Source: Chloroflexota bacterium (GTDB lineage: Bacteria > Chloroflexota > Anaerolineae > UBA4142). From it: a DNA stretch of 64,000 bases. Below, one piece after another: positions 311 to 48,102 of this stretch; the first letter of the stretch is position 1, and every line of letters begins with the position of its first letter. The translations under genes were made by a program, and so were the position numbers. The stretch spans positions 7,982 to 71,981 of the forward strand of contig JACRPR010000072.1 in NCBI GenBank assembly GCA_016223105.1. Direction: 5' to 3'. The notes under the pieces were generated by a model. That model saw only the letters and a list, made by a program, of their open reading frames with translations, was not told the origin of the DNA and did not search any database.

Positions 311-584
311 TATTGCCTTACGTGAATGTTATGAAAAAAAATTTTTCCGAACCGCGCACACCGCCGCCCGAAATTCCGGCGGATGAAAATAATTCAGATG
401 AACCACTCGAAATTATTTTTGCAGAAGAACTTTCACACGATTCCGCGGAGCAAGATACTGTGACGAAGCAGACATCATCCGTGCCGAGTGCGGACTCCGC
501 GCCCCAAGGAGGTGACCATCCCACACAGTAACTCGGCAATTGCGTATTCAAAAAAATTTCCATTTGATCACTCTGGAGGCAGAA

Positions 585-2573
585 ATGAAACAGTTAGCGA
601 TCGCGGTGCTTGCGCTCGCGACAATCCTGATGGTGGCATGCGGTGGTCAAGGCGCGGCGACGCCAGCCGCGACTGGTTTGACTTCGGACGCGGCGGCAGT
701 CGCGAAAGAACGCGAATTGAACGCGGATGATATTTATGCCGCGCTCAAAACGTTTACGCCATCCGGCAAACTCGATCCGTACATCATGTTTTCGTCCGGC
801 GGGCAATCGGGGCAGGTGCTGATTATCGGCGTGCCCTCGATGCGAATTCTCAAAGTGCTTGCCGTGTTCACGCCCGAATCCTGGCAAGGGTACGGCTTTG
901 GCGGCGGCGGCGAACAAGTTCTCGCCGGCGGATTTATGCCGAACAAGAAACCGATTCTCTGGGGCGACACACATCACCCCGGCTTGTCCGAAACCGCGGG
1001 CGAGTACGATGGTCAATTCCTTTTCATCAACGACAAAGCGAACGCGCGCGTCGCGGTAATTGACTTGCGCGATTTCAAAACGAAACAGATCATCAAAGCG
1101 CCGAACGCGATCAACGATCACGGTGGCGCGTTCGTTACGCCCAACACCGAGTACGTGATCGTCGGTCCGCAGTACGCCGCGCCGATCGGGTACGAGTACG
1201 CGCCGCTCGAACAGTACAAGGAAAAATATCGCGGCATTATCACGTTTTGGAAATTTGATCGCTCGAAGGGACGCATCGATCCCGCGCAATCGTTCCAGAT
1301 CGAATTGCCGCCGTACTGGCAAGACTTGTGCGACGCCGGTAAAAAAGTGAGCGACGGCTGGGTGTTCTGCAATTCGTTCAACACCGAAATGGCAACTGGC
1401 GGCGTCGAACTCGGCAATCCGCCGTTCGAAGCCGGCACGACCAAGAACGACACCGATTATCTCCACGTCTTCAATTGGAAAAAAGCGGAAGAGTTGTTCA
1501 AGGGCGGCAAAGCGGAAAAGATCAACGGAATGTCCGTGATTCGTTTAAAGACCGCGGCGGATGAAGGCGTGTTGCACTTTGTGCCAGAACCGAAATCCCC
1601 GCACGGCGCGGATGTTACGCCCGGCGGTGAGTTCGTCGTCGTCGGTGGTAAACTCGATCCGCACGTTACGATTTACTCGTTCGAAAAAATTCAGAACGCG
1701 ATCAAAGCCGGTGGATTGAGCAAGGATGCGTTCGGCGTGCCGGTGATTCCGCTCGACAAAGCGATGGAAGCGCAAGTCGAACTCGGCTTGGGACCTCTGC
1801 ACACAGTGTACGATGACAAGGGTTACGCGTACACATCCATGTTCCTCGATTCCGCCGTCGCGCGTTGGACGCTCGGTGGACCGTACGCGAGCAAACATCC
1901 CGAACCAGGTTGGAAACTCGTTCAGAAATTGCCGGTGCATTACAACATCGGGCACATCGCCGCCGCCGAAGGCGACACCGCGTCGCCCGATGGGCAGTTC
2001 GTCGTCGCGCTCAACAAGTGGAGCATTGATCGGTTCGCGAACATCGGACCCTTGCTCCCGCAAAATTTCCAACTCGTGGACATTACCAAGACCGGCGAAT
2101 CAATGAAATTGTTGTACGATATGCCGATTGGGATGGCGGAACCGCATTACGCGCAAATTATGAAAGCGGATAAACTAAAACCGTTCGAAGTGTATCCGCA
2201 GATCGGTTGGGATCCCGCGACGATGGCGGTGGATCCAAAATCAATCACGACCGAAAAAGAAGCGCGCGTCGAACGCAAAGGCAACAACGTCGAAATCTGG
2301 ATGTCGGTTGTGCGCTCGCACTTTTCGCCGGAACGCATCACGATCAAAAAAGGCGACAAGGTCACCTGGCACTTTACATCGCTCGAACGCCAGCGCGACG
2401 CGACGCACGGGTTTACGCTTTCCGGTTACAACATCAATCTTTCGCTCGAACCGGGAATGACGGAAACCATCGAGTTCGTCGCTGATCAAGCCGGCACGTA
2501 CACGTACTATTGCACCGAGTTCTGCTCGGCGTTGCACTTGGAGATGGTGGGCTATCTCTTGATCGAGCCCTAG
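585..2573 (+). CDS. nosZ: Nitrous-oxide reductase NosZ, Sec/lipoprotein-signal (clade II-like) type
   Basis: ORF 540..2573; ATG 585 preferred (GGAGG at 574-578). N-terminus MKQLAIAVLALATILMVAC is a signal peptide with a lipobox and no twin-Arg. WGDTHHP motif present. C-terminal CuA motif CTEFCSALHLEM (C-x2-FC-x3-H-x-EM). Confidence 0.92.
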   Translation: MKQLAIAVLALATILMVACGGQGAATPAATGLTSDAAAVAKERELNADDIYAALKTFTPSGKLDPYIMFSSGGQSGQVLIIGVPSMRILKVLAVFTPESWQGYGFGGGGEQVLAGGFMPNKKPILWGDTHHPGLSETAGEYDGQFLFINDKANARVAVIDLRDFKTKQIIKAPNAINDHGGAFVTPNTEYVIVGPQYAAPIGYEYAPLEQYKEKYRGIITFWKFDRSKGRIDPAQSFQIELPPYWQDLCDAGKKVSDGWVFCNSFNTEMATGGVELGNPPFEAGTTKNDTDYLHVFNWKKAEELFKGGKAEKINGMSVIRLKTAADEGVLHFVPEPKSPHGADVTPGGEFVVVGGKLDPHVTIYSFEKIQNAIKAGGLSKDAFGVPVIPLDKAMEAQVELGLGPLHTVYDDKGYAYTSMFLDSAVARWTLGGPYASKHPEPGWKLVQKLPVHYNIGHIAAAEGDTASPDGQFVVALNKWSIDRFANIGPLLPQNFQLVDITKTGESMKLLYDMPIGMAEPHYAQIMKADKLKPFEVYPQIGWDPATMAVDPKSITTEKEARVERKGNNVEIWMSVVRSHFSPERITIKKGDKVTWHFTSLERQRDATHGFTLSGYNINLSLEPGMTETIEFVADQAGTYTYYCTEFCSALHLEMVGYLLIEP

Positions 2574-3344: not shown

Positions 3345-5650
3345 AATTGCGAATCGCGATCCTGGTTTTTAGCGCGCTCGCGTTGATCTCGATCAGCCGC
3401 GCGCACGCGCAAACCGCGAACCTCTCGCACGCGCCCGCGCTCGTCGTCTCGCCGACCGGTCCCTTCACCACGATTCAATCTGCGCTCGATGCCGCGCGCC
3501 CGGGCGATCACATTCGCGTCGAGCGCGGCGTGTACGCCGGTCCGATTATCGTCACCAAATCAGTTACGCTCGAAGGCGAGAATTTTCCGGTGATTGACAA
3601 CGGCGGCGATGGCACGGTCGTTACGCTCGACGCACCCGGCGCGATTTTGCGCGGCTTTGAATTGCGCGGCAGTGGCGTCGAACCGGATCGCGATCACTCC
3701 GGCATCGCAGTCAACGCGTCGCGCGTGATCGTCGAAAACAATCGCTTGCGCGAAGTATTGTTCGGAATTTTTGTCGCGAAGGCGAGTGATGTAATCGTGC
3801 GCGGGAACGATATTTCAAGCAAATCCGAGTACGACACCGGACGCCAGGGCGACGCGATTCGCTTGTGGTACAGCCCGCGCGCCGTCGTCGAAAATAATTA
3901 CGTGCATCACGCGCGCGATCTGATCGCGTGGTACGCGTCCGATGTGATCATTCGCAATAATCGCGTCGAGCATAGCCGCTACGGCGTGCATCTGATGTAC
4001 TGCGACCATGCGGTGATCGAACACAATCGCATCTTCGATAATTCGGTCGGCATTTACACAATGTACTCGAACGATATTCTTTTGCGCGAAAATTTTATTC
4101 GCGGCACGCGCGGACCGAGCGGTTACGCGCTCGGCTTCAAAGACGCGGACAATGTGCGCGCGACGAACAATGTGCTCGTGGACAATCGCGGCGGATTTTT
4201 TCTCGACAACACGCCGGTTACGCCGCAAGGCGAAGGATTGTTTCGCGACAACATTCTCGCGTTCAACGATGTCGGCGCGATTTTGATGCCGGCGGTGCGC
4301 GGCGCGAATTTTGAACACAACACCTTTTGGGAAAATGTCGAGCAGGTCGCGATTCAAGGAAGCGGCAAACTTGTCGGCAATCACTGGAACGAAAATTTTT
4401 GGAGCGATTATGCGGGCTACGACGCGAACGGTGACGGGCAAGGCGACCTGGCTTATCGGTCGGATCGTTTCTTTGAAGGAATGGCGGATCGCATCCCGAC
4501 ATTGCGCGCGCTGATTTACAGTCCGGTCGCGCAAGCGATTGAATTTGCCGGCTCCGCGTTCCCGATTGTGAAACCACAACCGAAAATGAGCGATCCAAAA
4601 CCGGCGATGCAAGCCGCGCCGATTCCTGGTTTTGCCTTGCCGACGCGCGATGGCGCGGGCGCGATGACCGGCGCGGCAATCGCGTTGTTATTGTTCGGCA
4701 TTGTGTCCGGCGCGTTTTCTGTCATTGCGAGCAAAGCGAAGCAATCCCCAACCGAGACCCGAAGGGTTTTCGGAAACCCTTCGGGTCTGTCCGCGTCCGT
4801 GCGCGTGGAAAATTTTTCCAAGCAGTACGGCAAGGTGCGCGCGATTGAAAACGTTTCGTTCGACGCGCGACCGGGCGAAGCATTGGCATTGTGGGGCGCA
4901 AACGGCGCGGGCAAAACAACTTTGCTCAAAGCAATCCTGGGATTGATTGATTATCGCGGCAAAATTCTGGTCGCCGATTTCGACGCGGCGCGCGCGGGAA
5001 AACAAGCGCGCGCGAACATCGGTTACGTGCCACAAGAAGCGACGTTCTACGATCTCAACGTACAAGCAACGCTCGAATTTTACGCGCGCCTCAAAAAAGC
5101 GGATCCCGCGCGCGTCCCGGTTTTGCTCGAACGCGTCGGACTCGCGGAACATGCGCGCAAACCGGTGCCCGCGTTATCGGGTGGACTCAAGCAACGACTC
5201 GCGCTCGCGGTCGCGCTGTTGAGCGATCCGCCGATTTTACTGCTCGACGAGCCGACCGCGAATCTCGACACACGCGCGCGGCGCGATTATCTCGCGCTCT
5301 TGTCCGCGTTGCATCACGAAGGCAAGACGTTGATCTTTGCGTCGCATCGCATCGAAGAAGTCGAAACGCTCGCGGATCGCGTGTTGATGATCGAAGCCGC
5401 GCAACTCGCCGAGATCATAACGCCGGAAGAATTGCGCGCGCGCCTCGCGACCGAAATCGAAATGACATTGTGGGTTGACGACGCGCAACGCGTCGCCGCG
5501 CGCGATTGTCTCGCGAATGCCGGGTTCGATCCGCGCGTCAACGGGCGCGGCACGGTGATTGTGCGCGTGCGCGCGGAACAAAAAATGCGCGCGTTCGATC
5601 TGCTGAATGAGTGCGGGGTCACGATCAAGAATTTCGAGATCGAGAATTAG
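3341..5650 (+). CDS. nosD-nosF: NosD::NosF fusion: periplasmic beta-helix Cu-maturation protein, TM helix, then ABC ATPase
   Basis: A single 769-codon frame. Signal peptide MKLRIAILVFSALALISISRAHA and a NosD-like repetitive beta-helix body. TM segment MTGAAIALLLFGIVSGAFSVIA. NosF-like ATPase with Walker A GANGAGKT, signature LSGGLKQR and Walker B LLLDEP. Confidence 0.85.
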   Translation: MKLRIAILVFSALALISISRAHAQTANLSHAPALVVSPTGPFTTIQSALDAARPGDHIRVERGVYAGPIIVTKSVTLEGENFPVIDNGGDGTVVTLDAPGAILRGFELRGSGVEPDRDHSGIAVNASRVIVENNRLREVLFGIFVAKASDVIVRGNDISSKSEYDTGRQGDAIRLWYSPRAVVENNYVHHARDLIAWYASDVIIRNNRVEHSRYGVHLMYCDHAVIEHNRIFDNSVGIYTMYSNDILLRENFIRGTRGPSGYALGFKDADNVRATNNVLVDNRGGFFLDNTPVTPQGEGLFRDNILAFNDVGAILMPAVRGANFEHNTFWENVEQVAIQGSGKLVGNHWNENFWSDYAGYDANGDGQGDLAYRSDRFFEGMADRIPTLRALIYSPVAQAIEFAGSAFPIVKPQPKMSDPKPAMQAAPIPGFALPTRDGAGAMTGAAIALLLFGIVSGAFSVIASKAKQSPTETRRVFGNPSGLSASVRVENFSKQYGKVRAIENVSFDARPGEALALWGANGAGKTTLLKAILGLIDYRGKILVADFDAARAGKQARANIGYVPQEATFYDLNVQATLEFYARLKKADPARVPVLLERVGLAEHARKPVPALSGGLKQRLALAVALLSDPPILLLDEPTANLDTRARRDYLALLSALHHEGKTLIFASHRIEEVETLADRVLMIEAAQLAEIITPEELRARLATEIEMTLWVDDAQRVAARDCLANAGFDPRVNGRGTVIVRVRAEQKMRAFDLLNECGVTIKNFEIEN
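4721..4749 (+). repeat. Family C half-element (GTCATTGCGAGCAAAGCGAAGCAATCCCC) inside the nosD::nosF linker
   Basis: Same motif as the left arm of the 79-bp element at 19355-19433. Translated here as VIASKAKQSP. Confidence 0.7.
4755..4788. repeat. Palindrome family P copy (AGACCCGAAGGGTTT-tcgg-AAACCCTTCGGGTCT), in frame in the nosD::nosF linker
   Basis: 15-bp perfect arms with a 4-nt loop. Translated as ETRRVFGNPSGL. Confidence 0.85.
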
Positions 5651-5727
5651 GGGTTGGAAGTTGGAAGTTGGAAATTAGAGATTGGATTGTCGCGCGAGGC
5701 GCATCCAGCATCCAACGTCCAACTTCA
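5651..5727. repeat. Word-repeat hairpin (GGAAGTT/GGATTGT words) between nosDF and nosY
   Basis: GGTTGGAAGTTGGAAGTTGGAAATTAGAGATTGGAT ... ATCCAGCATCCAACGTCCAACTTC. Confidence 0.7.
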
Positions 5728-6565: not shown

Positions 6566-7053
6566 GAAAATCCCAATTACCAATTACCAATTACCAATTA
6601 CTCCTGGGTTTGAGTTTGCTGATTGCGCTATTCCTGAGCGCGTGCGCGCAACCAACCGGCGAGCCGAAACCGCCGGACATTGTGTACAATCGCGATATGT
6701 GCGAAGCGTGCGGAATGATTATCAGCGATGCGCGCTTTGCCGCCGCGACGTTGACGACAGACGGACGATCGCTCAAGTTCGATGACGCGGGCGAAATGTT
6801 CGGTTATCACGCGCGCAATTCCCAGGTTCAAGTGCGCGCGTGGTTCGTCCACGATTACGATTCGCAAAAATGGATCAATGGCAAGGACGCGTTTTACGTG
6901 ATCGCGCGCGACATCAAATCGCCGATGGGCACCGGCGTCGCGACATTCGCAGAGCGCGCGAACGCGGAAACTTTGGCGAAACGCTTCAACGTCAATGTGT
7001 TGACCTTCGATCAAGCTTTCACGGCAATCAAGGAGGGCAAATCGGGAATGTAA
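6562..7053 (+). CDS. nosL: NosL copper-chaperone lipoprotein
   Basis: Start overlaps the nosY stop (ATGA). Lipobox LSAC. DMCEACGMII metal-binding motif typical of NosL. Confidence 0.85.
   Translation: MRKSQLPITNYQLLLGLSLLIALFLSACAQPTGEPKPPDIVYNRDMCEACGMIISDARFAAATLTTDGRSLKFDDAGEMFGYHARNSQVQVRAWFVHDYDSQKWINGKDAFYVIARDIKSPMGTGVATFAERANAETLAKRFNVNVLTFDQAFTAIKEGKSGM
6574..6601 (+). repeat. Tandem heptamer (CAATTAC)x4 inside the nosL 5' end
   Basis: Four exact 7-nt units, translated as PITNYQLL in the signal-peptide n-region. Related word runs at 33557-33611 and 48075-48102. Confidence 0.9.
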
Positions 7054-12406: not shown

Positions 12407-12467
12407 GATTTCAAATTTCAAATTTCAGATTGATGAATCTGAAATCTGCAATCTGAAATCTGAAATT
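12407..12467. repeat. Word-repeat hairpin (GATTTCA/AATCTGA words) between ahcY and metK
   Basis: GATTTCAAATTTCAAATTTCAGATT-gatga-ATCTGAAATCTGCAATCTGAAATCTGAAAT. Confidence 0.8.
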
Positions 12468-12468
12468 C

Positions 12469-13764
<1,296 letters not shown>

Positions 13765-17307: not shown

Positions 17308-17535
17308 AAAAAAAAATCTCTCCGCGCAAGAGAGAGAACGTCAAAACACGCGTCTCATCTCCCAAGCCAAAGCACAGCGGCTTGCCGGAATTGGCACCGA
17401 TTTAGTTGGATAGTTGATTAGTTGGATAGTTGGTTAGTTGAATGTCAACTATCCAACTATGAAACTATATAACTATTGCACTACCGGTTGCCGAGGTTTC
17501 ACAGGGCCGATCCCTCCACCTCTCTGGATGAGTGT
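17308..17535 (-). promoter_or_regulatory. SAM-I (S-box) riboswitch with an intrinsic terminator, 5' of mtnA
   Basis: Minus-strand RNA: CUCAUCCAGAGAGGUGGAGGGAUCGGCCCUGUGAAACCUCGGCAACC-[~95-nt P3]-GGUGCCAAUUCCGGCAAGC...GGGAGAUGAG. This is followed by UCUCUC-uugcgcg-GAGAGA and U9. Confidence 0.88.
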
Positions 17536-33779: not shown

Positions 33780-33814
33780 AAAAGCACAATCAATGATCGC
33801 GATCGGTTTAGGTT

Positions 33815-33855
33815 TCACGCATCACGCATTACGTTTTACGCATTACGTTTTACGC
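33815..33855 (-). repeat. ACGTTTT/GATGCGT composite element abutting the GT2 stop codon
   Basis: TCACGCATCACGCATTACGTTTTACGCATTACGTTTTACGC. The gene stop (33850-33852) lies inside it. Confidence 0.7.
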
Positions 33856-34803
33856 TTCCTCATCGCGCGGTTTCGGCGGGGCTTCACTCACGATGTAAAG
33901 CGGACGATTTTTCACCTCGTCGTAAATCCGTCCCAGGTATTCGCCGATGATGCCGAGGAAAATTAATTGCACGCCGCCGAGAAACAGAATCGCGATGATC
34001 GAAGTCGCTTCGCCATAAAACGCATTGTTGCCGGAAAGCCGCAGAGCGATGACGACCGGAATGGTAAGGAGCGCGATGCCGGAAATCCAAAAGCCAATCG
34101 TCGTCGCGAGTTGAAGCGGGATGTACGAAAAGCCGGTGATCGCGTCGGTCGCGAATTTGAGCATTTTGCGAAACGGATATTGCGTCGTGCCGGCAAAACG
34201 TTCCTGGCGCACGTACTGAATCCCGGTTTGTTTGAATCCAACCCACACCGACAAGCCGCGCATAAAGCGATGATGCTCGCGCAATTTTCGCATCGCCAAA
34301 ACAACCTTGCGATCAATCAAGCGAAAATCGCCGGTGTCCGGCGGAATATCAATCGAAGAAAGTTTGCGAATCAGCCGATAAAAAATCGAAGCGGTGAAAA
34401 GTTTGAACCAGGTTTCGCCTTCGCGCTTGGCGCGTTGCGCGTACACCAACTCGAATCCGGTTTTCCATTTCGCGATCATTTCTAAAATCACTTCGGGCGG
34501 GTCTTGCAAATCGGAATCTATGATCGCGACGGCATCGCCTTCCGCGTAATCAATCCCGGCGGTGATCGCGATCTGGTGCGAAAAGTTGCGCGAGAAGACG
34601 ACGCACTTGACGCGCGGATCGTACGCGTGCAGTTCGCGCCCAATCGCCGGCGAACGATCGCGACTGCCGTCAAAAACCAGGACGAGTTCGCACGCGCCGT
34701 CAAGTTGATCCATCACCGCGCGCGTGCGGCGATAAAATTCCGGGAGCGTGGCTTCCTCATTAAAGACGGGCGCGACAATGGAGTAACGAGGTCGGTTTGG
34801 CAT
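33850..34803 (-). CDS. GT2 polyprenol-phosphate glycosyltransferase (Ppm1/GtrB/ArnC-like)
   Basis: [16 protein letters not shown] and [10 protein letters not shown] (DxD) motifs. Two C-terminal TM helices. Confidence 0.8.
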
Positions 34804-34810
34804 AGGTCGT

Positions 34811-34957
34811 TTGGAAATTGGAAATTAGAAATTGGAAGTTGGAAGACGTGATACGTGATGCGTGATAATCTCACGCATCACGCATCACGTTTTACGTTTT
34901 ACGTTTTACGTTTTACGTTTTACGTTTTACGTTTTACGCTTTACGCTTTACGTTTTA
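34811..34957 (-). repeat. Composite intercistronic element: (ACGTTTT)x10 tandem, a GATGCGT-word hairpin and TTGGAAA words
   Basis: Ten 7-nt units at 34887-34956. Hairpin ACGTGATACGTGATGCGTGA-taatc-TCACGCATCACGCATCACGT at 34846-34890. TTGGAAATTGGAAATTAGAAATTGGAAGTTGGAAG at 34811-34845. The substrate-binding-protein stop at 34955 lies within it. Confidence 0.85.
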
Positions 34958-36889
34958 CTTGATCGTCCAACTTTCCGCGTAGAACGGAATGTATTTGCCT
35001 TCGTTCACATCATAGTACGTGAACGGCGGATAGAGCGCATTGCTCAAGACCGCGCCGCTTGCCATGATGTTGTCCGTCGAATAGAGATTGTAATTCGCTT
35101 TCGGTGGTTGCACGTACGGGTACGAGGTCTTGAATTCTTTCGCGCGATTCGTCGCGCTCGGTTTGAGTTGACCGCTCAAGAGCTGGCGCGCGACCGGCGA
35201 ATTGTTCTGATTGTTTTTGTAAATCTTGTCGTCCACCGGCAACCAACCGGTCACCCGCGTCTTGGTGTCAATCGGATCGGTGAGGTAGCGTTCGAACATC
35301 ATCAAGACGGGCAAACTGTCGTTGAAGAACGATGCGACATCGGCGATGTAGGGTTTTTGTTTTTCCGCGTCAAACCCTTCCGCCATCTTGTCCACCCATT
35401 CCTTGATGTTGATCTCTTTGCCATCCGCGGTTTTTTGCTTGAACGGCAAGTTGATGCCGCGTTCGCCTTCGTTGCCTTCGGGATTGTTTTTCCAACCCGC
35501 GCTCACCACACCCGGGCGCAAGTTGTAATCGAAGGAAACGTACGGGTGAAAGTACGTAAAGCGGAAACCAATGTCCATCGAAATTTGATACTTGCCGGCT
35601 TTGTGGAGGTTGGTGCGTTCGGACGATTGGTACGGCTTGACCGTGATCTTGATGCCGAACTTGGTTAATTGTTGCGCGACGTTTTCGGACGACGCGAGGT
35701 ATTCGGTGAAATCGGCGGGCACGCTCAATTCAAATTCCAGTTTCTTGCCCTTGTCATCCACCCAAATGCCATCCGCGCCTTTTTTGAAATTGAGCCCAGT
35801 CAACAACGCTTCGGCTTTTTTCACATCCGCATCGTACGTGTTGAGTTTGGCAAGTTGCGCGGCGGAAAGCCAGGTCGGCACTGCGGCATCGGTAAAGCCG
35901 GCTTCGTACTTGACCGGGCGGCACGCATCGCCGAACGCAACCTTGCAATTTTCAACGCGATCAATCGCGTACGCGAATGCCTGGCGCACTTCTTTTTTGT
36001 TCAGCGGATAGACATCGTTGTTAAAGTACATCCCGGGTCCGTTCGTCCCAGGTCCGCCGAGCACGACCATGTGATTGCCGACCGCGCGAATCGCTTGCAA
36101 ATTCGCGGGGCTGTACGCGTTCGAGGAATAGTCCATATCGTTCGAGAGATACAATGGCATATCCTGAACGGTGTCGCCCCAGTACACGGTAACTTTGTCG
36201 AAATCAATCTTGTCCGCGTTGAACCCGGACGCGTTCTTGACCATCGTGAATTGCGCTTCGGTAACTTGTTTCGGATCAATGTTGAACGGACCGTAGACGA
36301 TCGCGCTCGGCGGGCGGAACGCGTTCATTTCGTCGAGCGTTTTGGTTACGTCCGCGCTTTTGCGGTCAGTGTTATTTTTGCGAAAACCGGCGGCGGCGTC
36401 CATCCATTTGCCGTACTGCGCGTACGGACGCGTGACGGTCGCGCGCACAATCGTGTCGAGAATCGCGGGACCGGGGGTTTTGATCGTGAACTCGACGGTC
36501 GCGTCATCTTTCGCGACGACATCGTTCAGCGCGTTCCAGGTCGAGCTGGTTTGCATCCACAAAATGTTGTACGTGCCGACGACATCTTTCGAGCTGAACG
36601 CGGAGCCGTCGCTCCATTTCATGCCCTTGCGAAGATTGATCGTGATCGTTGTAACGCCGGGCGCGGCGGGTTTAGTTGGCTCTGCCGGTTTCGTGGCAAC
36701 CGGCGCGGTCGTCGCCGCGGGCTTGGTGGGTTCCGGTGCTTTGGTTGCCGGCACCGCGGTCGGCGGCACCGCCGCCGTTGGTTTCGGCGCGTCGGTCGGT
36801 TTAGGCGCGGGCGTCGGCGTTGGCGCGGCGCACGCGACGAGCGCGACAAGCGCGATCAGCAATGTGAGCGCGAGCAAAATCTTTTTCAT
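34955..36889 (-). CDS. ABC transporter substrate-binding lipoprotein, family 5 (peptide/nickel/oligosaccharide type)
   Basis: Lipobox LVAC followed by a ~60-aa Pro/Thr/Ala tether. Family-5 body (INLRKGMKWSDGSAFSSKDVV...). Confidence 0.8.
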   Translation of the reverse strand: MKKILLALTLLIALVALVACAAPTPTPAPKPTDAPKPTAAVPPTAVPATKAPEPTKPAATTAPVATKPAEPTKPAAPGVTTITINLRKGMKWSDGSAFSSKDVVGTYNILWMQTSSTWNALNDVVAKDDATVEFTIKTPGPAILDTIVRATVTRPYAQYGKWMDAAAGFRKNNTDRKSADVTKTLDEMNAFRPPSAIVYGPFNIDPKQVTEAQFTMVKNASGFNADKIDFDKVTVYWGDTVQDMPLYLSNDMDYSSNAYSPANLQAIRAVGNHMVVLGGPGTNGPGMYFNNDVYPLNKKEVRQAFAYAIDRVENCKVAFGDACRPVKYEAGFTDAAVPTWLSAAQLAKLNTYDADVKKAEALLTGLNFKKGADGIWVDDKGKKLEFELSVPADFTEYLASSENVAQQLTKFGIKITVKPYQSSERTNLHKAGKYQISMDIGFRFTYFHPYVSFDYNLRPGVVSAGWKNNPEGNEGERGINLPFKQKTADGKEINIKEWVDKMAEGFDAEKQKPYIADVASFFNDSLPVLMMFERYLTDPIDTKTRVTGWLPVDDKIYKNNQNNSPVARQLLSGQLKPSATNRAKEFKTSYPYVQPPKANYNLYSTDNIMASGAVLSNALYPPFTYYDVNEGKYIPFYAESWTIK

Positions 36890-36905
36890 TTTCTTCTCCT
36901 CCGAA

Positions 36906-36960
36906 TTAGTTGGATAGTTGAATTGTTGAATTGTTGGATAGTTGGATAGTTGTTGGTTGA
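36906..36960 (+). repeat. One-armed word run (GGATAGTT/GAATTGTT words)
   Basis: TTAGTTGGATAGTTGAATTGTTGAATTGTTGGATAGTTGGATAGTTGTTGGTTGA. Confidence 0.7.
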
Positions 36961-36983: not shown

Positions 36984-37166
36984 TTACCGATTCGACCACC
37001 GCACGACCAGCGCGATGATCGCGATAAAGCCGATGCCAATTATAAGCGACGTTACGCTAATGACAAATTCTGCCGTGCCGGGCGCGACAAAAAATAGCAA
37101 GCCGCCGGACGTGAGTGTAAAAAAAAGCGCGATGCGAAACCATGCCAAGCCAAGTTCTGGGTTCAT
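36984..37166 (-). CDS. Possible small two-TM membrane protein
   Basis: 60 aa with two hydrophobic helices. No convincing RBS. Only its position within the operon supports it. Confidence 0.3.
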   Translation of the reverse strand: MNPELGLAWFRIALFFTLTSGGLLFFVAPGTAEFVISVTSLIIGIGFIAIIALVVRWSNR

Positions 37167-37172
37167 TGTTGC

Positions 37173-37227
37173 TGATGCGTGATGCGTGAAAATTATTCAC
37201 GCATCACGTTTTACGTTTTGCGATTTA
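37173..37227 (-). repeat. ACGTTTT/GATGCGT composite element abutting the ATPase stop codon
   Basis: TGATGCGTGATGCGTGAA-aatta-TTCACGCATCACG followed by TTTTACGTTTTGCGATTTA. The stop at 37211-37213 lies inside it. Confidence 0.8.
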
Positions 37228-38203
37228 CCAAGTGACACGCGACACGCGCGCCATTCGCCTCGAGCAATCCCGGCACATTCTGCTCGCACACCGCGCCGAT
37301 GAATTGCGGACAGCGCGGATGAAACGCGCAACCCGTCGGCAGACGCAAGAGACTCGGCACATCCATACTGCGTAGTTCGATGTGCTTTTTGCGCCGCGTC
37401 ACTTCGGGGTCGGCTTCCGGGATCGCGGAAAGCAAAACCTGGGTGTACGGATGTTGCGGTCGTTCGACCAGGTCGCGCGCCGGCGCGAGTTCGACGAGTC
37501 GTCCCAGGTACATTACGCCGATGCGCCCTTCCCACGCAAAGTATTTCGCGAGCGCGAGATCGTGCGTGATGAACAATACCGCCAGCCCCATCGCGTCTTT
37601 GAGTTTCGTCAACGTGTTGAGCAAACTGATCCGAATCGAAACATCCACCATCGAAACGGCTTCGTCCGCGATGATGAACGACGGCGCGACCGTGAGCGCG
37701 CGCGCGATCGAAACGCGTTGGCGTTGTCCGCCGGAAAGTTGATGCGGAAATTTTTCGAGGTAATCGTCCGGCGGCGTGAGGTCAACGCGCGCGAGCAATT
37801 CGCGCACGCGTTCGCGCGTCGCCGCGTCGCCGCGCGTGAAACCGTGATGGCGCAGTGGCGCGGCGATAATATCGGCAATCGTGTGCGTCGGATTCAGCGA
37901 GGCGTACGGATCCTGGTGAATCATTTGCACGCCAAGCCGGTATTGTTTGCGATCATCGCCGCGCAAGTTCGCGATGTTTTGATTGCGAAACAAAATTTCG
38001 CCGGACGATACCGGCAAAACGCCCGCGATCATTTTGCCGGTCGTCGTTTTGCCGCATCCCGATTCGCCGACGAGACACACAATCTCGCCTTCGCGAATCG
38101 CGAGCGACACATCGTCCACCGCCTTGATCGTTTGGCGTTTGACGGCGAACGTGCGCGTAACGTGGTTGAGGGTGAGAATGGGGTTGGACATTGGATTATG
38201 CAA
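37211..38203 (-). CDS. ABC transporter ATP-binding protein (OppF/DppF-like)
   Basis: Walker A GESGCGKTT, signature LSGGQRQR, Walker B IIADEAVS, C-terminal oligopeptide-type extension. The start is TTG 38203 or ATG 38191. Confidence 0.85.
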   Translation of the reverse strand: MHNPMSNPILTLNHVTRTFAVKRQTIKAVDDVSLAIREGEIVCLVGESGCGKTTTGKMIAGVLPVSSGEILFRNQNIANLRGDDRKQYRLGVQMIHQDPYASLNPTHTIADIIAAPLRHHGFTRGDAATRERVRELLARVDLTPPDDYLEKFPHQLSGGQRQRVSIARALTVAPSFIIADEAVSMVDVSIRISLLNTLTKLKDAMGLAVLFITHDLALAKYFAWEGRIGVMYLGRLVELAPARDLVERPQHPYTQVLLSAIPEADPEVTRRKKHIELRSMDVPSLLRLPTGCAFHPRCPQFIGAVCEQNVPGLLEANGARVACHLVNRKT

Positions 38204-38555
38204 GAACCATCGGCAAGGGTTTTAATTCGCGCCGCAACGGATCCAACGCCAACCCAAGCGATTCAAGCGTGAACGCGCCCAAAAGTTCGCTGTCGCCGGC
38301 TTCACCAAAAATCACATCCGCGCCACCAATCCGTTCGCCGTATTTGAAGATCGCAACGCCTTTTTTACGCGCGATGGTTGTGCCATCCGCCAAGCGAAAT
38401 TTTTCTGTCGTCAACGGTTTGATGCCCAGTTTTTCCAGAATGGGCGTCGGCACGACCGAATAGATCGCGCCCGAGTCAACGAGGAACTCGATGGTTTCAG
38501 TTATTTCAGGATTCGCGACATTTGCAACTTGAACACTCAAAACAGCCAGTCCCAT
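38196..38555 (-). CDS. Retropepsin-like (clan AA) aspartic protease domain protein
   Basis: ATG 38555 (GGGAGAGG upstream). FLVDSGAIYSVV D-S-G active-site motif. 119 aa single domain. Confidence 0.6.
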   Translation of the reverse strand: MGLAVLSVQVANVANPEITETIEFLVDSGAIYSVVPTPILEKLGIKPLTTEKFRLADGTTIARKKGVAIFKYGERIGGADVIFGEAGDSELLGAFTLESLGLALDPLRRELKPLPMVLA

Positions 38556-38576
38556 TTTTGCCTCTCCCGAAAATAA

Positions 38577-38630
38577 GTTTGTAGGGCGCGCTTGCGCGTT
38601 CTGAACGGCGATGAATCGCCGACTACAAAC
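38577..38630. repeat. Hairpin element GTTTGTAG...CTACAAAC between the RHH and protease genes
   Basis: GTTTGTAGGGCGCGCTTGCGCGTTCTGAACGGCGATGAATCGCCGACTACAAAC, with outer 8-bp arms and two inner hairpins. Confidence 0.7.
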
Positions 38631-38662
38631 AATCAATTGTCCTTTCAAAATATAATCGCGGA

Positions 38663-38890
38663 TCAATAGCGATCGTGCTCGGTAGAAAGATCAGGCAAGC
38701 CGGAGTGAAAACGTCCGGCGGCGGCAAGCGCGCGGCGTTTGCGTTCCGCGCGATCTAACGCGCCGCGCGCGCGTAACATTTGATCTACCGCTTGGCGAAT
38801 CAAATCCGCCGGTTTTTTTTTCTGCGCCGCCGCGAGCGATTTCAACGCGCGCGCTTGCGCTTCACTCAGTTCAATTTGAGTTCTGACCAT
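38663..38890 (-). CDS. Ribbon-helix-helix (CopG/VapB-like) antitoxin-type protein
   Basis: GGAGG RBS. N-terminus MVRTQIELSEAQARALKSLA is an RHH pattern. The C-terminus ...FHSGLPDLSTEHDRY is typical of VapB-like RHH antitoxins. Confidence 0.6.
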   Translation of the reverse strand: MVRTQIELSEAQARALKSLAAAQKKKPADLIRQAVDQMLRARGALDRAERKRRALAAAGRFHSGLPDLSTEHDRY

Positions 38891-38902
38891 CGTTCCTCCT
38901 AT

Positions 38903-39880
38903 TCATGTCGTACGCCAATTCCAACACGCGACGCGATGCCCGCTCGCAATCTCTTCCAGTTCCGGCTCATCGCGTTTGCACCGCGCGTCCGCGCGCGGAC
39001 AGCGCGGATGAAATTTACACCCGCTTGGCAATTCGATCAAGTCCGGCGGCGAACCTGGGATCGAAGTCAAATCTTCTTTCGCGCCTTGAAGCGTCGGCAC
39101 CGCGTTGATCAAGCCAATCGTGTACGGATGCGCGGGCGTTTTGAACGTCGTCGTAACATCTGCAAATTCGACGATTTTGCCGGCGTACACCGTCGCGACA
39201 CGATCGGCGAGTTCGGCGGCGAGCGACAAATCGTGCGAAATAAAAATCAACGAGAAATCGAGTTTGCCGCGCAATTCTTTCAGCACGTCCATAATATTGC
39301 GTTGCGTCAGAATGTCGAGCGCGGTCGTCGGCTCATCGAGAATCAAGAGTTGCGGTTCGAGCAGTAAGCCGAGCGCGATCAGCACGCGTTGCCGCATGCC
39401 GCCGGACAATTCGTGCGGAAACGATTTCCACACGCGTTCCGGATCGAGCCGGACGAGCGTGAGCAAATGTTCCGCGCGTTCTTTCAGCGCGCGCCCTTGC
39501 AAATAGTTATGCGCGCGCGCCGTGTCGCCGAATTGATCCGCGATGCGTAAAACCGGGTTGAGCGAGTTGAGCGCGGATTGAAACACCATCGCGCACTCTT
39601 TCCAACGAAACTCGCGGAGGGCTTTGCCCTTCAGCGTGAGCGCGTCAATCGTTTTATTGTCGCGATGATACAGCGCATTGCCCTGCGTGATCTTCGCGGT
39701 ACTCGGAAGCAATTGCACCACGCCCAAGCCGAGCGTCGTTTTGCCGGAACCGCTTTCGCCGATCAGCGCGAGCGCATCGCCACGCGCAACGTCGAAGGAC
39801 ACGTTGCGAATCGCGCGCACCTTGCCGCGCCGCGCGGCGTATTCGATGGATAAATTTTGAACAGATAAAGTTGGAGGCAT
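38903..39880 (-). CDS. ABC transporter ATP-binding protein (OppD/DppD-like)
   Basis: ATG 39880; the upstream extension is repeat-encoded. Walker A GESGSGKTT, signature LSGGMRQR, Walker B LILDEPTT. Confidence 0.85.
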   Translation of the reverse strand: MPPTLSVQNLSIEYAARRGKVRAIRNVSFDVARGDALALIGESGSGKTTLGLGVVQLLPSTAKITQGNALYHRDNKTIDALTLKGKALREFRWKECAMVFQSALNSLNPVLRIADQFGDTARAHNYLQGRALKERAEHLLTLVRLDPERVWKSFPHELSGGMRQRVLIALGLLLEPQLLILDEPTTALDILTQRNIMDVLKELRGKLDFSLIFISHDLSLAAELADRVATVYAGKIVEFADVTTTFKTPAHPYTIGLINAVPTLQGAKEDLTSIPGSPPDLIELPSGCKFHPRCPRADARCKRDEPELEEIASGHRVACWNWRTT

Positions 39881-39968
39881 AGTTGGATGGTTGGATAGTT
39901 GGGTAGTTGGGTAGTTGAATAGTTGCGTGGTTGGAAGAATTATCCAACTATCCAACTATTCAACTATC
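39880..39968. repeat. Word-repeat hairpin (GGATAGTT/GGGTAGTT words)
   Basis: ATAGTTGGATGGTTGGATAGTTGGGTAGTTGGGTAGTTGAATAGTTG ... TTATCCAACTATCCAACTATTCAACTATC. Confidence 0.75.
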
Positions 39969-39971
39969 TAA

Positions 39972-40085
39972 TTTGACAATGTCAGATTAGCCACAGAATC
40001 ACACAGAAACACACAGAATAAGAAAAAATTTCTGTGAAATTCTGTGTGTTTCTGTGGCAGAAAAAGGAAATCTGACATTGCCAAA
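39972..40085. repeat. Nested two-level hairpin (outer GACAATGTCAGATT, inner CACAGAA words)
   Basis: TTTGACAATGTCAGATT-[AGCCACAGAATCACACAGAAACACACAGAA ... TTCTGTGAAATTCTGTGTGTTTCTGTGGC]-AATCTGACATTGCCAAA. Confidence 0.8.
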
Positions 40086-40976
40086 CTAAACACTTGTGCG
40101 TAACCTGGGATTGAAAACTTCTTCGAGCGAACGCGCGAACGAGATGAGCGCGAGTTGAAACAGCACGATCGCGCCAATCGGCGCAATAATGCTCCACGAC
40201 GCGGCGGCGGTGTACAGCACGCCGCGCCGCTCCGCCGCGGAAATCATCACGCCCCAATTTGCGCCCGAGTACGGCACGATGCCGAGAAAGACCAAACCGG
40301 TCTGTTGATAAATCGCGAACGTCATGGTGAAAATCGTCGAGACCGCGATGAACGACATCATATTCGGCAAAATCTCGCGGAAAATAATTTGGCGCGTGCC
40401 GAGATCGAGCATCGTCGCGGCTTCGATGTAATCGCGTTTCTTGAGCGACAACACCTGGGCGCGCACCTGACGCGACAAGCCGGGCCAATCCAGGAACGCC
40501 ATCAAAAGCGAAAGCGTAACGGGATCGTTTAATTTGATGACGGTCGCGATCACCGCGAGCAGAGGAAATTTTGGAATCGTCATCCAGATATTGACGAGTT
40601 CCATCAACGCACTATCCACGCGTCCGCCGACGAACGCGCTGAACGCGCCGACCGTTACCGCGAGCAAGGTCGCGATGATGCCGGTCAGAAACGCGGTAAT
40701 CACAATGTCTTTGCCGCCATTGATCACCTTGCGTAAATTATCCTGTCCTTGAAAATCGGTGCCAAGAAAATGTTTTTCCGACGGACCCTGATTAATGTCC
40801 GCGACGTTCGCCGAAGTTTCGGGTTGCCAAATGATCGGACCGACAAACGAGAGCAGGACGATGACGAGCGTCATCACAAAACCGAACAAGCCCATCTTGT
40901 TGCGCGCGAGCAGTTTGAATGTTTTGATCGTCTCGCGCGCAAAACCGCCGATCCCATCGCGTAACGCGTTCATCAA
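40086..40976 (-). CDS. ABC transporter permease (OppC/DppC-like)
   Basis: 296 aa, 6 TM, binding-protein-dependent transport inner-membrane signature region (..AATMLDLGTRQIIFREILPN..). Confidence 0.85.
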   Translation of the reverse strand: MMNALRDGIGGFARETIKTFKLLARNKMGLFGFVMTLVIVLLSFVGPIIWQPETSANVADINQGPSEKHFLGTDFQGQDNLRKVINGGKDIVITAFLTGIIATLLAVTVGAFSAFVGGRVDSALMELVNIWMTIPKFPLLAVIATVIKLNDPVTLSLLMAFLDWPGLSRQVRAQVLSLKKRDYIEAATMLDLGTRQIIFREILPNMMSFIAVSTIFTMTFAIYQQTGLVFLGIVPYSGANWGVMISAAERRGVLYTAAASWSIIAPIGAIVLFQLALISFARSLEEVFNPRLRTSV

Positions 40977-42046
40977 TTGCCCCCTCCCGCGATGCGGATG
41001 CGCGGATCGAGCCAGCCGTACAGAAAATCGGCGATCAAGTTGGAAAAGACGACCGCGAACGTGATGACCAAAAACACGCCTTGCATCACCGGATAATCGC
41101 GATTGCCGAGACTATCCGCCAACAAAAATCCGACGCCGCGATACGCAAACAAGCGTTCGAGCAACAGCGAGCCGCCGACTGCGAACCCGATCGAAATCGC
41201 GAGCCGCGTGAACAAGGGCAGGGTCGCGTTGCGTCCGACGTACGCGGTGAGGATGCGAAAATCGCTCAAGCCGCGCGCGCGCGCGGCGGTAACGTAATCT
41301 TCGCCGAGCGTCGCGATCGTGTTGCTCTTCATAATCAAAATCCACGAGCCAACTGACGCCAGGACATACACGAGCAAAAGCACTTTGACGTGACTGAACG
41401 CATCCGCGAAAAATTCGAGCGAAAATTCCGGTTGGATCCCGGGCGATAACGCGCCGCGCATTTCGCTAAACGGAATAATTTTCCACGTTACGCCGAGCAA
41501 TAAAATTGCGAGCAAGCCGATCAGGTACGGCGACACGGCGTCGAGCGTCGCGGCGATGTTGCTGATCAGATGATCGAACCAGGTGTCGCGCGCGTACGCA
41601 ATGAGCGCGCCGAGCGCGATGCCGATGATGAACGTGATCGCGAGCGACAAGCCGACGCTGAACAAGGTCCAGGGCAGAACTTGCGCGATCATATCCGCCA
41701 CGTTGAGCCCGCGCGAGCGGTACGATTTGCCGAAATCGCCGCGCACGACGTTCGCGAGATAATCGAGATATTGCTCGTGCGCCGGCTGATTGAGATCAAT
41801 GCCCATGAGCGACGCGGCTTGATTGAGCGCTTCGTCCGCGGAGAATCCTTGCGCGGTGAGGTCTTGGATCAAAATGTCCACCGCGTTGCCCGGCATTGCG
41901 CGCACCACAAAGAACGTGATCGTCACGACCACCCAAATTGTGAACATTGCTTTGACGATGCGGCGCAGGACATAGTTCGATGTGATGCGTTCGATCCGCG
42001 CGAGCAGTGAAAATGTTTGTGGCTGGGTTTGAGAAGTTACTGCCAT
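40973..42046 (-). CDS. ABC transporter permease (OppB/DppB-like)
   Basis: 357 aa. ...YVTAARARGLSDFRILTAYVGRNATLP EAA-loop region. Overlaps the next permease gene by 4 nt. Confidence 0.85.
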   Translation of the reverse strand: MAVTSQTQPQTFSLLARIERITSNYVLRRIVKAMFTIWVVVTITFFVVRAMPGNAVDILIQDLTAQGFSADEALNQAASLMGIDLNQPAHEQYLDYLANVVRGDFGKSYRSRGLNVADMIAQVLPWTLFSVGLSLAITFIIGIALGALIAYARDTWFDHLISNIAATLDAVSPYLIGLLAILLLGVTWKIIPFSEMRGALSPGIQPEFSLEFFADAFSHVKVLLLVYVLASVGSWILIMKSNTIATLGEDYVTAARARGLSDFRILTAYVGRNATLPLFTRLAISIGFAVGGSLLLERLFAYRGVGFLLADSLGNRDYPVMQGVFLVITFAVVFSNLIADFLYGWLDPRIRIAGGGN

Positions 42047-48074: not shown

Positions 48075-48102
48075 AATTGCCAATTACCAATTACCGATTG
48101 CC
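48075..48102 (+). repeat. CAATTAC-type word run supplying the stop codon of anmK::murQ
   Basis: GAATTGCCAATTACCAATTACCGATTGCC. On the minus strand it reads ...GGC AAT CGG TAA (GNR*). Confidence 0.7.

Follow-up and report, generated by a model that had tools for sequence, protein, structure and literature searches.

The ATPase genes D and F of Opp/Dpp-type ABC importer operons are normally adjacent, as had been assumed for this locus and as was found in orthologous operons with an empty junction, where they are 4–11 nt apart. In a stretch of 64,000 nt from a Chloroflexota contig, referred to here as the window, a gene for a ribbon-helix-helix (RHH) protein and a gene for a retropepsin-like aspartic protease, both on the minus strand, lie between them (Table 1). 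The original prediction read these two genes as a toxin-antitoxin-like (TA-like) pair, and the question raised by the locus is whether they belong together at all. The comparison of both gene families and of sister operons points, with a high degree of confidence, to a leftover of a vapBC module beside an unrelated protease, the toxin gene having been swapped out by recombination, rather than to a co-evolved pair.

Two inserted genes in a peptide-type importer operon

The operon encodes two ATPases, identified by direct profile search, together with two permeases and a binding protein, identified by the precomputed Pfam domains of their orthologues (for permease gene 1, BPD_transp_1 in the orthologues of L083, L181 and L195). 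ATPase D matches an NCBI protein of 325 aa at 100% identity; its gene ends in TGA (38903-38905), and its C-terminus, …CWNWRTT*, falls some 10 aa short of the …CWQWKNARQSLEKFKA* found in operons with an empty junction. That two small genes are wedged between D and F was borne out, and since the junction is empty in relatives lacking them, both are insertions. The lower GC content noted by eye for the segment is real but modest (protease gene 51.7%, spacer 45.8% and RHH gene 57.9%, vs. 57.7–59.2% for the ATPase genes) and is plainer at third codon positions, with GC3 of 0.55–0.56 for both inserted genes vs. 0.68–0.74 for the operon genes, a composition that suggests foreign DNA. No sigma-70-like promoter or terminator match was detected within 38196-38902, so that both genes are most likely transcribed as part of the operon.

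Table 1. Features of the importer operon and of its D/F junction (positions in the window).
Feature	Position	Strand	Description
ABC permease gene 1	40973..42046	-	357 aa; opens the examined operon segment; ORF
ABC permease gene 2	40086..40976	-	296 aa; ORF; orthologues with OppC_N and BPD_transp_1
ATPase D	38903..39880	-	325 aa, start MPPTLSV; ABC_tran and oligo_HPY
D/vapB junction	38891..38902	-	12 nt, ATAGGAGGAACG; holds the RHH Shine-Dalgarno sequence
vapB' (RHH antitoxin gene)	38663..38890	-	75 aa vs. 82 in the complete form
Spacer	38556..38662	-	107 nt; open in the protease frame; protease Shine-Dalgarno sequence GGGAGAGG at 38561-38568
Y-shaped hairpin	38577..38630	-	outer stem GTTTGTAG/CTACAAAC around two small hairpins, then UUAUUUUC
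Clan AA aspartic protease gene	38196..38555	-	119 aa; stand-alone single domain; D27-S-G-A, L91-L-G
Protease/F junction	38192..38195	-	4 nt, TCCA
ATPase F	37211..38191	-	326 aa, start MSNPILTLNH; ABC_tran and oligo_HPY; start fixed by orthologues
Hydrophobic ORF	36984..37166	-	60 aa; conserved; after F in all orthologous operons
Substrate-binding protein gene	34955..36889	-	644 aa; ORF; orthologues with SBP_bac_5

Regarding the RHH gene, here termed vapB', its start 12 nt beyond the D stop and its own ribosome-binding site (AGGAGG ahead of the ATG) are as predicted, and its 263 homologues identify it as a real gene. The match of the protein to RHH_1 is weak (18.8 bits, cutoff 20.5), and PF01402 is precomputed in most of the homologues that are 60–75% identical to it. 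The ORF ends in ...SGLPDLSTEHDRY; members of the family are 82–86 aa long, normally 82, and vapB' lacks the last seven codons (L-S/A-E-A-F/Y-x-x), its tail stopping at …HDRY, so the full toxin-binding tail is not present, while all family-invariant residues, including the N-terminal ones, are. The PADLOC library gave no match for either the RHH protein or the protease, and PHROGs gave weak RHH matches only.

The second gene indeed encodes, as proposed, a 119-aa single-domain clan AA protease with the motif FLVDSGA. Its start, MGL..., was set from 25 aligned homologues, and a ribosome-binding site of its own (GGGAGAGG) was found 5 nt ahead of this start. D27, S28, G29 and A30 as well as L91, L92 and G93 are invariant in the 25 sequences. 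The stop codon, TAA (38196-38198), abuts the F start, with 4 nt between it and the ATG at 38191; the alternative version, an 8-nt overlap with F starting at TTG 38203, was rejected, as the orthologues begin with MSNPILTLNH at the 38191 ATG. The intervening TCCA resembles the ancestral D-stop/F-start junction of empty sites, TAA-ATCT-ATG. The protein scores above the cutoff for PF13650 (28.0 bits, cutoff 24.3) and below it for PF13975 (25.4, cutoff 28.2) and TIGR03698 (45.6 bits, cutoff 57.35). Solved structures gave no match by sequence, and an AF2 monomer model (pLDDT 76) found a foamy-virus protease as its best structural match in the PDB (probability 0.96, E 0.23) and, among the top six in BFVD, four proteins with the name of an aspartyl, acid or retropepsin-like protease (probability 0.97–1.0, TM 0.51–0.57, E 0.014–0.14); retroviral and phage aspartyl proteases were among the best structural matches, and no match reached an E of 0.001. 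Judging from its motifs and predicted fold, the protein is probably an aspartic protease active as a homodimer. By eye, neither a signal peptide nor a hydrophobic stretch is apparent at its N-terminus.

For the protease, over 5000 clusters of homologues were obtained. In a comparison of the 75 nearest full-length copies, which come from archaea and over 20 phyla, median amino acid identity is about 76%, and the subfamily is 63–95% identical across phyla; identity across phyla falls to 38% at the third positions of conserved codons, synonymous sites are therefore saturated, and these codon comparisons indicate that the family is under selection. No relatives were found in 2.9 million viral contigs, and on plasmids the sole relatives were 30%-identical Synechocystis genes. 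An apparent second copy near 2451-2504 of the window was a chance match, in an ORF that by eye is presumably a NosZ gene.

Between the two genes, the hairpin that had been noted was confirmed in the spacer; it folds at -22.6 kcal/mol (z = -3.3), a value equalled in 0 of 200 shuffles, and is present in a single copy in the window (chance expectation 0). The whole spacer is not significant as a structured RNA (z = -0.9), the 64-nt core alone being so. A repeat element (missing from 185 other loci) and a known RNA (no Rfam match, spacer included) were likewise rejected as identities of the hairpin. The ends of the hairpin, GTT…AAC, are the reverse of the R''/R' order of integron attC sites, and because of this reversed polarity an attC site was rejected too. 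The spacer itself has no match in 194 fetched loci and no second copy in the window. A PIN remnant was sought in its 107 nt by three-frame translation and by tblastn with two cognate VapC proteins, and nothing was found; the same tblastn search detected no related PIN gene anywhere in the window, the best match (E 0.06, 12458-12523) being a chance match within a 421-aa ORF which, from its sequence, is taken to be an S-adenosylhomocysteine hydrolase gene.

Neighbourhoods and relatives of the two families

When the RHH family was surveyed at 80 metagenome loci, a PIN homologue was found directly downstream of the RHH gene in 64, usually with a 4-nt overlap, so that the expectation of PIN toxins as partners of RHH proteins with this tail held; the same RHH-then-PIN arrangement is found for P0132, P0134 and P0123. 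The protease was not found beside the RHH gene in any of these 80 loci. Conversely, an RHH homologue was sought within 4 kb of the protease in 80 genome loci, which cover archaea and over 20 bacterial phyla, and was detected in none. The protease loci have no recurrent neighbour, large or small, beyond syntenic relatives, and a recurrent small ORF considered as a partner proved to be an artefact, lying antisense to the conserved coding sequence; upstream of the protease, the Shine-Dalgarno sequence is the sole conserved element. A putative toxin should never occur without its antitoxin, and the protease stands alone in the 80 genomes and in sister operons. Thus, the proposed pairing does not recur in the loci of either survey, and its reading as a TA-like system fails, the RHH gene being a leftover of VapBC.

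The window RHH protein is a member of a VapB family whose conserved tail reads …AAAGRFHSG…DLS.EHD.YL.EA…. A PIN gene follows this family in the 64 loci of the survey above, and in sister operons a 132-aa PIN gene does so at the same D/F junction. It differs from VapBC in being half a module, without vapC and with a VapB minus its last seven residues. Regarding the protease, the nearest likeness is to the pSNCAPs (COG5550 / TIGR03698 'clan_AA_DTGF', PF13650), which are about 120 aa long, have D-S/T-G-A and a hydrophobic-hydrophobic-Gly motif, and occur in bacteria and archaea; little is known of prokaryotic single-domain clan AA peptidases in general (PMC2642776). The window protease differs in scoring below the TIGR03698 cutoff and in belonging to an unusually conserved subfamily, for no member of which a sequence search detects a solved structure. 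The Rickettsia protease APRc is reportedly membrane-associated. APRc (PMC4140852) and the Pseudomonas aeruginosa proteases, described as secreted (PMC11957051), share with the window protein a retropepsin-type domain in a prokaryote. The window protein, by contrast, appears by eye to lack both an N-terminal signal peptide and a hydrophobic segment.

Junction states in orthologous operons

Four states of the D/F junction were found among orthologous operons: empty, complete vapBC, protease alone, and the chimera of the window. The empty state occurs in L184, L185 and L195, whose D proteins are 84–90% identical to that of the window, and the protease-only state in L081-L088 and L181-L183. The complete state, an 82-aa VapB with a 132-aa PIN VapC (PF01850, 45.5 bits), occurs in L190-L194, with the order D (325 aa), 12 nt, vapB, an overlap, vapC, 14 nt and F (327 aa); the VapB of these operons (P0364, 82 aa) is in the same 90% cluster as the window RHH protein, and the 12-nt D/vapB junction of the window, ATAGGAGGAACG, is orthologous to their GTAGGAGGCACG. 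An intact vapB-vapC at the same junction in sisters bears out the reading of the RHH gene as a remnant of a VapBC pair that lost its PIN gene, which the original prediction had named as a refuting outcome.

The breakpoint is readable from the comparison with L190. The two sequences align from the 3' end of D to codon 75 of vapB, diverge abruptly after CTATT, with the stop codon of vapB' made at the breakpoint (TAT|TGA), and become similar again at the F start codon; between these points the last seven vapB codons and the whole of vapC are replaced in the window by the 107-nt spacer and the protease gene. Upstream of the breakpoint, vapB' and the in-place vapB of L190 are 93.3% identical in nucleotides (15 of 225 differ, mainly synonymously) and 94.7% in amino acids (4 of 75 differ), and at least two of the four amino acid changes, polarised against alignment A2, fall on the L190 branch. 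Since the ORF is intact, the Shine-Dalgarno sequence kept and only 4 of 75 residues changed, vapB' may have kept its function instead of decaying as a remnant. In the protease-only sisters a 92–95% identical protease occurs at this junction without an RHH gene, which speaks against the protease being a toxin dependent on this antitoxin and lends indirect support to a non-toxic protease, a further refuting outcome named in the original prediction.

The absence of the pairing from both surveys, together with the in-place vapBC of sister genomes, thus suggests that the RHH and protease genes became neighbours by recombination. The D/F junction of this Chloroflexi peptide-type importer would be a strain-variable slot for small accessory genes, formerly occupied by the complete vapBC that is still there in sister genomes. 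In the window lineage, one recombination event would have swapped out the end of vapB and all of vapC for an incoming block of about 470 nt, comprising the spacer with its hairpin and then a promoterless protease gene with its own RBS, leaving an orphan, C-terminally truncated VapB adjoining an unrelated protease. In type II TA modules a stable toxin is paired with a labile antitoxin, so that loss of the toxin with the antitoxin kept is the sole tolerated order of decay; by this order the window looks like an intermediate and the protease-only sisters like a later stage. In D and F sequences, however, the window is an outgroup (about 90% nucleotide identity) to a cluster of 93–98% identity in which the vapBC and the protease-only alleles both occur, so a simple linear series needs either independent events or recombination that exchanges alleles within the population. 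Shine-Dalgarno-like sequences, TAGGAGGA and GGGAGAGG, flank the RHH indel on both sides, and its difference from the protease-only allele therefore fits either an insertion or a microhomology deletion.

Alternative readings and significance

Whether the truncated VapB is of use to its host, as anti-addiction immunity against the vapBC allele that circulates in its population or as a stand-alone RHH repressor, is a separate matter, compatible with replacement of the toxin gene by recombination; a useful role is possible, though on the doubtful side. Orphan antitoxins have been seen as remnants of degraded TA modules or as anti-addiction modules (PMC7354431), and the vapBC and protease alleles share the metagenome samples 3300060336, 3300024054 and 3300055478, which together with the intact gene and its conserved invariant residues would suit immunity. 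However, the last seven tail residues are gone, the gene is wholly lost in sister lineages, the window holds no cognate PIN gene, and the window branch is a single sequence, too few to measure selection. Like other orphans, the window gene is an antitoxin gene without its cognate toxin gene, from a once complete module; it differs in that the complete ancestor, the breakpoint and the replacing DNA are readable from sister genomes, and in that its toxin gene gave way to an unrelated gene instead of being inactivated by mutation.

An extension of this reading, in which the truncated VapB is kept as immunity against vapBC and the protease is a hitch-hiker displacing resident toxin genes, is improbable. 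If it were true, the vapBC allele could re-enter the slot by homologous recombination via the flanking D and F genes, and the locus would be a record of a live contest of selfish elements over one operon junction.

Still less probable is a tie of the protease to the peptide importer, for which it would have been recruited, e.g., to process imported peptides. At least three diverged lineages retain the gene in the operon, with 92–95% amino acid identity, third positions of conserved codons being only 68% identical among them, but no neighbour family recurs in the 80 other protease loci, operons with 84–90% identical D proteins do without the protease, and the same junction takes unrelated genes, namely vapBC and, in L196/L197, a 23S_rRNA_IVP gene, with a PDDEXK_3 gene at the neighbouring junction in L184.

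The pair itself, with the RHH protein neutralising or regulating a toxic aspartic protease, can be set aside as most improbable: the two genes are adjacent and co-oriented, 107 nt apart and with an RBS each, and from a TTG overlapping the RHH stop the protease ORF can be read in frame as an extended, 156-aa form, but this form is missing from a collection of 15 billion proteins, all homologues start at MGL, the pairing is found in none of the 80 loci of either survey, the orthologous RHH gene is partnered in place by a PIN toxin, its toxin-binding tail is truncated here, and sisters hold the protease without it.

Thus, the locus is explained without any protease-type TA toxin, and a tempting false lead is gone; both gene kinds are ordinary, an orphan truncated VapB and a COG5550/TIGR03698-like clan AA protease. 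Near-identical sister alleles document the decay of a chromosomal vapBC in which the toxin was probably lost first, displaced by foreign DNA, with the antitoxin outlasting it as a truncated orphan, and the protease-only sister lineages carry neither vapB nor vapC. Intergenic junctions within a conserved ABC operon can thus be landing pads where small stand-alone genes settle, the examples here being vapBC, the retropepsin-like protease, 23S_rRNA_IVP and PDDEXK_3. The protease family, conserved and partnerless, may be worth biochemical study.

Small genes and repeats in the window

Both small genes lie between the ATPase genes D and F of an Opp/Dpp-type ABC importer operon, with the predicted coordinates and order and on the minus strand. 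The ATG of the RHH gene (vapB') is found 12 nt downstream of the D stop and is preceded by AGGAGG, the ATG of the protease gene is preceded by GGGAGAGG and 5 nt, confirming a ribosome-binding site for each gene, and the protease stop abuts F at a distance of 4 nt from an ATG that is also used by the F orthologues (MSNPILTLNH). Regarding composition, the lower GC content noted by the original prediction is modest in bulk and clear at third codon positions, with GC3 of 0.55-0.56 in both small genes versus 0.68-0.74 in the operon genes, and their codon composition is foreign. Neither promoter-like nor terminator-like sites were detected within the insert.

Features of the window
Feature	Position	Strand	Remark
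Permease gene 1	40973-42046	-	operon gene order
Permease gene 2	40086-40976	-	operon gene order
ATPase D	38903-39880	-	ABC_tran + oligo_HPY
RHH ORF (vapB')	38663-38890	-	75 aa; between D and spacer
Spacer	38556-38662	-	107 nt; between RHH ORF and protease
Hairpin	38577-38630		in spacer
Protease ORF	38196-38555	-	119 aa; between spacer and F
ATPase F	37211-38191	-	ABC_tran + oligo_HPY
Conserved ORF	36984-37166	-	60 aa; after F
Substrate-binding protein gene	34955-36889	-	after 60-aa ORF
SAM riboswitch match	17352-17534	-	74.7 bits; 183 nt vs 108-nt model
Tandem repeats	5636-5700, 6568-6609, 17397-17483, 33797-33858, 34867-34956, 36885-36955, 37186-37233, 39866-39979, 48075-48102, others		7-8-nt units
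Family D7 palindrome	4755, 10369, 14531, 52705, 58575, 58723		six copies
Families D6, D17	9461, 10240, 13842, 24886, 28047, 33742, 47881		last copy inverted
NosZ-like ORF	540-2573	+	judged by eye

The predicted hairpin is real by occurrence count and fold statistics, being found once where none is expected by chance and folding into a Y shape (-22.6 kcal/mol, z = -3.3). Since it is followed by UUAUUUUC and stands 8 nt ahead of the Shine-Dalgarno sequence of the protease gene, a role in attenuating read-through or in transcript stability is conceivable, if speculative. Neither spacer nor hairpin had a match among the 194 loci fetched, nor in Rfam.

Intergenic tandem repeats, (GTTGGATA)n, (ACGTTTT)n, (GGAAGTT)n and (CCAATTA)n, form long palindromes across the window and create spurious N-terminal ORF extensions, for instance of ATPase D; a 57-nt palindrome between protease and F in two related operons (L081, L181) is of the same type. 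One octamer-repeat palindrome (17397-17483) falls inside the SAM riboswitch match, and therefore appears to be inserted in a variable loop. The perfect palindrome of ~35 nt, AGACCCGAAGGGTTTTCGGAAACCCTTCGGGTCT, looks REP-like or terminator-like, and a dispersed repeat of 44-61 nt (D6, D17) has the conserved core ACCGCGTAAACGCTCGACTCC and, in longer copies, inverted ends (GGATTCGA…TCGAATCC). An ORF that looks like the gene of the nitrous-oxide reductase NosZ contains a protease match in its C-terminal segment GMTETIEFVADQ, which was set aside as chance.

Origin of the RHH gene

The 263 homologues of the RHH protein are nearly all of 82 or 86 aa and end in …HDRYLAEAFxx, the copy in the window ending in …HDRY. 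Downstream of the RHH gene in 80 metagenome loci comes an ORF of ~132 aa, typically overlapping it by 4 nt, which encodes a PIN homologue in 64 of them, as had been anticipated for RHH proteins with this tail; the rest are mostly cut off by contig ends or degraded, none of the 80 has a protease, and individual look-ups agreed with this survey. DNA similarity between the window and the vapB genes of these loci ends right after codon 75.

The D/F junction occurs in four states, three of them in relatives. The junction is empty in L184, L185 and L195 (D protein 84-90% identical), with D and F 4-11 nt apart and a D tail longer by ~10 aa (…KNARQSLEKFKA before the stop). In L190-L194, retrieved because an RHH protein of 82 aa (P0364) shares a 90% cluster with that of the window, D is followed after 12 nt by vapB (82 aa) and vapC (132 aa, PIN), and after a further 14 nt by F. 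The protease alone follows D after 12 nt in L081-L088 and L181-L183, with 61 nt containing a heptamer-repeat palindrome before F, and the fourth state is that of the window itself. The vapBC and protease-only alleles are present in the same metagenome samples. In a more distant orthologue of the operon (D 77% identical), a 23S_rRNA_IVP four-helix-bundle gene (54 bits; L196 3509-3778, L197 3238-3507) follows D instead of F, a further small stand-alone gene at this junction, and in L184 (2538-2999) a 131-aa PDDEXK_3 gene flanked by 22-nt inverted repeats, TTTTCACCACAGAGACACAGAG / CTCTGTGTCTCTGTGGTGAAAA, is inserted between a permease gene and ATPase D.

In both the window and L190, D has a shortened end (CWNWRTT and CWNWRGT, respectively), followed by the 12-nt Shine-Dalgarno junction and by vapB, which is 93.3% identical over 225 nt, with four amino-acid differences, as far as codon 75; past this the sequences diverge abruptly until similarity returns at the start of F. 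This shared stretch and its break identify the RHH gene as the in-place remnant of a vapBC module. A PIN remnant in the spacer and a related PIN gene elsewhere in the window were sought and not found. The RHH gene descends from a VapB and would work like one but, having neither the complete tail nor the neighbouring PIN gene that define a whole member, it is best classed as a truncated VapB without a partner, an orphan. It is compatible with this origin that the orphan still functions, either in immunity against addiction, the light in which orphan antitoxins have been discussed (PMC7354431), or as a repressor; its ORF is intact and barely diverged, but the cut tail and the absence of the gene from sister lineages leave such a function a tentative and rather doubtful proposition.

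The protease family

Regarding the protease, motifs, size and a score above the Pfam Asp_protease_2 (PF13650) threshold liken it to single-domain clan AA peptidases, although its TIGR03698 match falls short of the cutoff. Prokaryotic clan AA proteins of ~120 aa, termed pSNCAPs (COG5550, COG3577), are little known (PMC2642776). More than 5000 homologues were retrieved, and the top 120 are 75-92% identical and annotated from many phyla; an alignment of 25 homologues places the start at MGL, with D27-S-G-A and L91-L-G invariant. The best PDB matches of an AF2 model (pLDDT 76) are foamy-virus and EIAV proteases, and its best BFVD matches include phage proteins that bear the name aspartyl protease or retropepsin-like, all with E > 0.01, the evidence for a retropepsin fold being suggestive only. 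No related solved structure was detectable by sequence, and no relatives were found among viral contigs.

Neighbourhoods were surveyed in 80 fetched genome loci from Chloroflexi, Nitrospirota, Nitrospinota, Acidobacteriota, Planctomycetota, Omnitrophota, Zixibacteria, Methanosarcinales and other groups. In none of these was an RHH-like ORF found upstream of the protease, or a tblastn match to the window's RHH protein within 4 kb of it; no neighbour family of at least 70 aa recurred in more than four loci, those few being syntenic relatives, and no small ORF recurred except an antisense artefact of conserved coding sequence. Conservation upstream is confined to a Shine-Dalgarno sequence, and past residue 119 the C-terminal tails have anywhere from 0 to 30 aa. 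The protease gene stands on its own, without a regular partner. Pairwise comparison (2775 pairs) gave a median amino-acid identity of 76%, against only 38% identity at the third positions of codons that are conserved; synonymous sites are hence saturated, and the conservation reflects strong purifying selection rather than a recent spread. Recruitment of the protease for peptide import is improbable, as the family elsewhere is without a recurrent neighbour of any kind and operon junctions in other relatives house unrelated small genes (23S_rRNA_IVP, PDDEXK_3).

In three genomes, L030 (3769-3969), L063 (1141-1476) and L068 (2993-3340), the conserved protease gene has another, diverged paralogue (30-57% identical) immediately upstream, and the two could form heterodimers. 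Genes detected within ~500 nt of the protease in nine loci (L019, L020, L038, L061, L064, L065, L066, L068, L072), in varied positions and strands, include single genes of the following types: RelB-like, HicB-like, MqsA-like, BrnA-like (weak), Pol-beta nucleotidyltransferase, DUF6036/AbiEii, Uma2 and IS3 OrfA; the protease thus tends to be found in accessory-gene patches, without a fixed partner. Within a type III-B cmr operon on the Synechocystis sp. PCC 7338 plasmid pSyn7338-1 (L189, 2501-2911) are a gene for a Uma2 endonuclease and a 30%-identical one named 'clan AA aspartic protease', and retropepsin-domain proteins of ~100 aa are associated with type III CRISPR loci of Sulfolobales (PMC3973734). 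Between the window and L081, amino-acid identity is equal (~92-93%) in protease, D and F, but conserved codons agree at 68% of their third positions in the protease versus 82-83% in D and F, which could stem from weaker codon bias in a foreign gene or from a separate allele history.

History of the junction

The spacer and the protease gene have replaced the last 7 vapB codons and the toxin gene. For a type II toxin-antitoxin module it is safe to lose the stable toxin first, but not the labile antitoxin, so that the state of the window is a plausible intermediate between vapBC and the protease alone; a later deletion of vapB' and the spacer could have been mediated by the flanking Shine-Dalgarno-like sequences TAGGAGGA … GGGAGAGG. 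Judged by its D and F genes, the window (~90% nt) is an outgroup to the cluster (93-98%) in which both vapBC and protease-only alleles occur, and the order we infer therefore needs inter-strain recombination or independent events.

Thus, the insertion described by the original prediction is real, but a new toxin-antitoxin pair of RHH protein and protease is highly improbable: the neighbourhood survey contradicts it, the in-place partner of the RHH gene is a PIN gene, the RHH tail is truncated and sister operons carry the protease without the RHH gene. On both testable points, co-occurrence and no toxin gene without its antitoxin, the pair does not behave as a toxin-antitoxin module. That the two genes are neighbours is a chance outcome of recombination. 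The D/F junction is polymorphic, the breakpoint is sharp, the habits of the two small genes elsewhere differ, and each belongs to a known kind, with nothing outside known categories. The locus may be read as a natural record of toxin-first decay of a toxin-antitoxin module and of an operon junction serving as an accessory-gene slot, and the protease family, strongly conserved and partnerless, may merit biochemical study.
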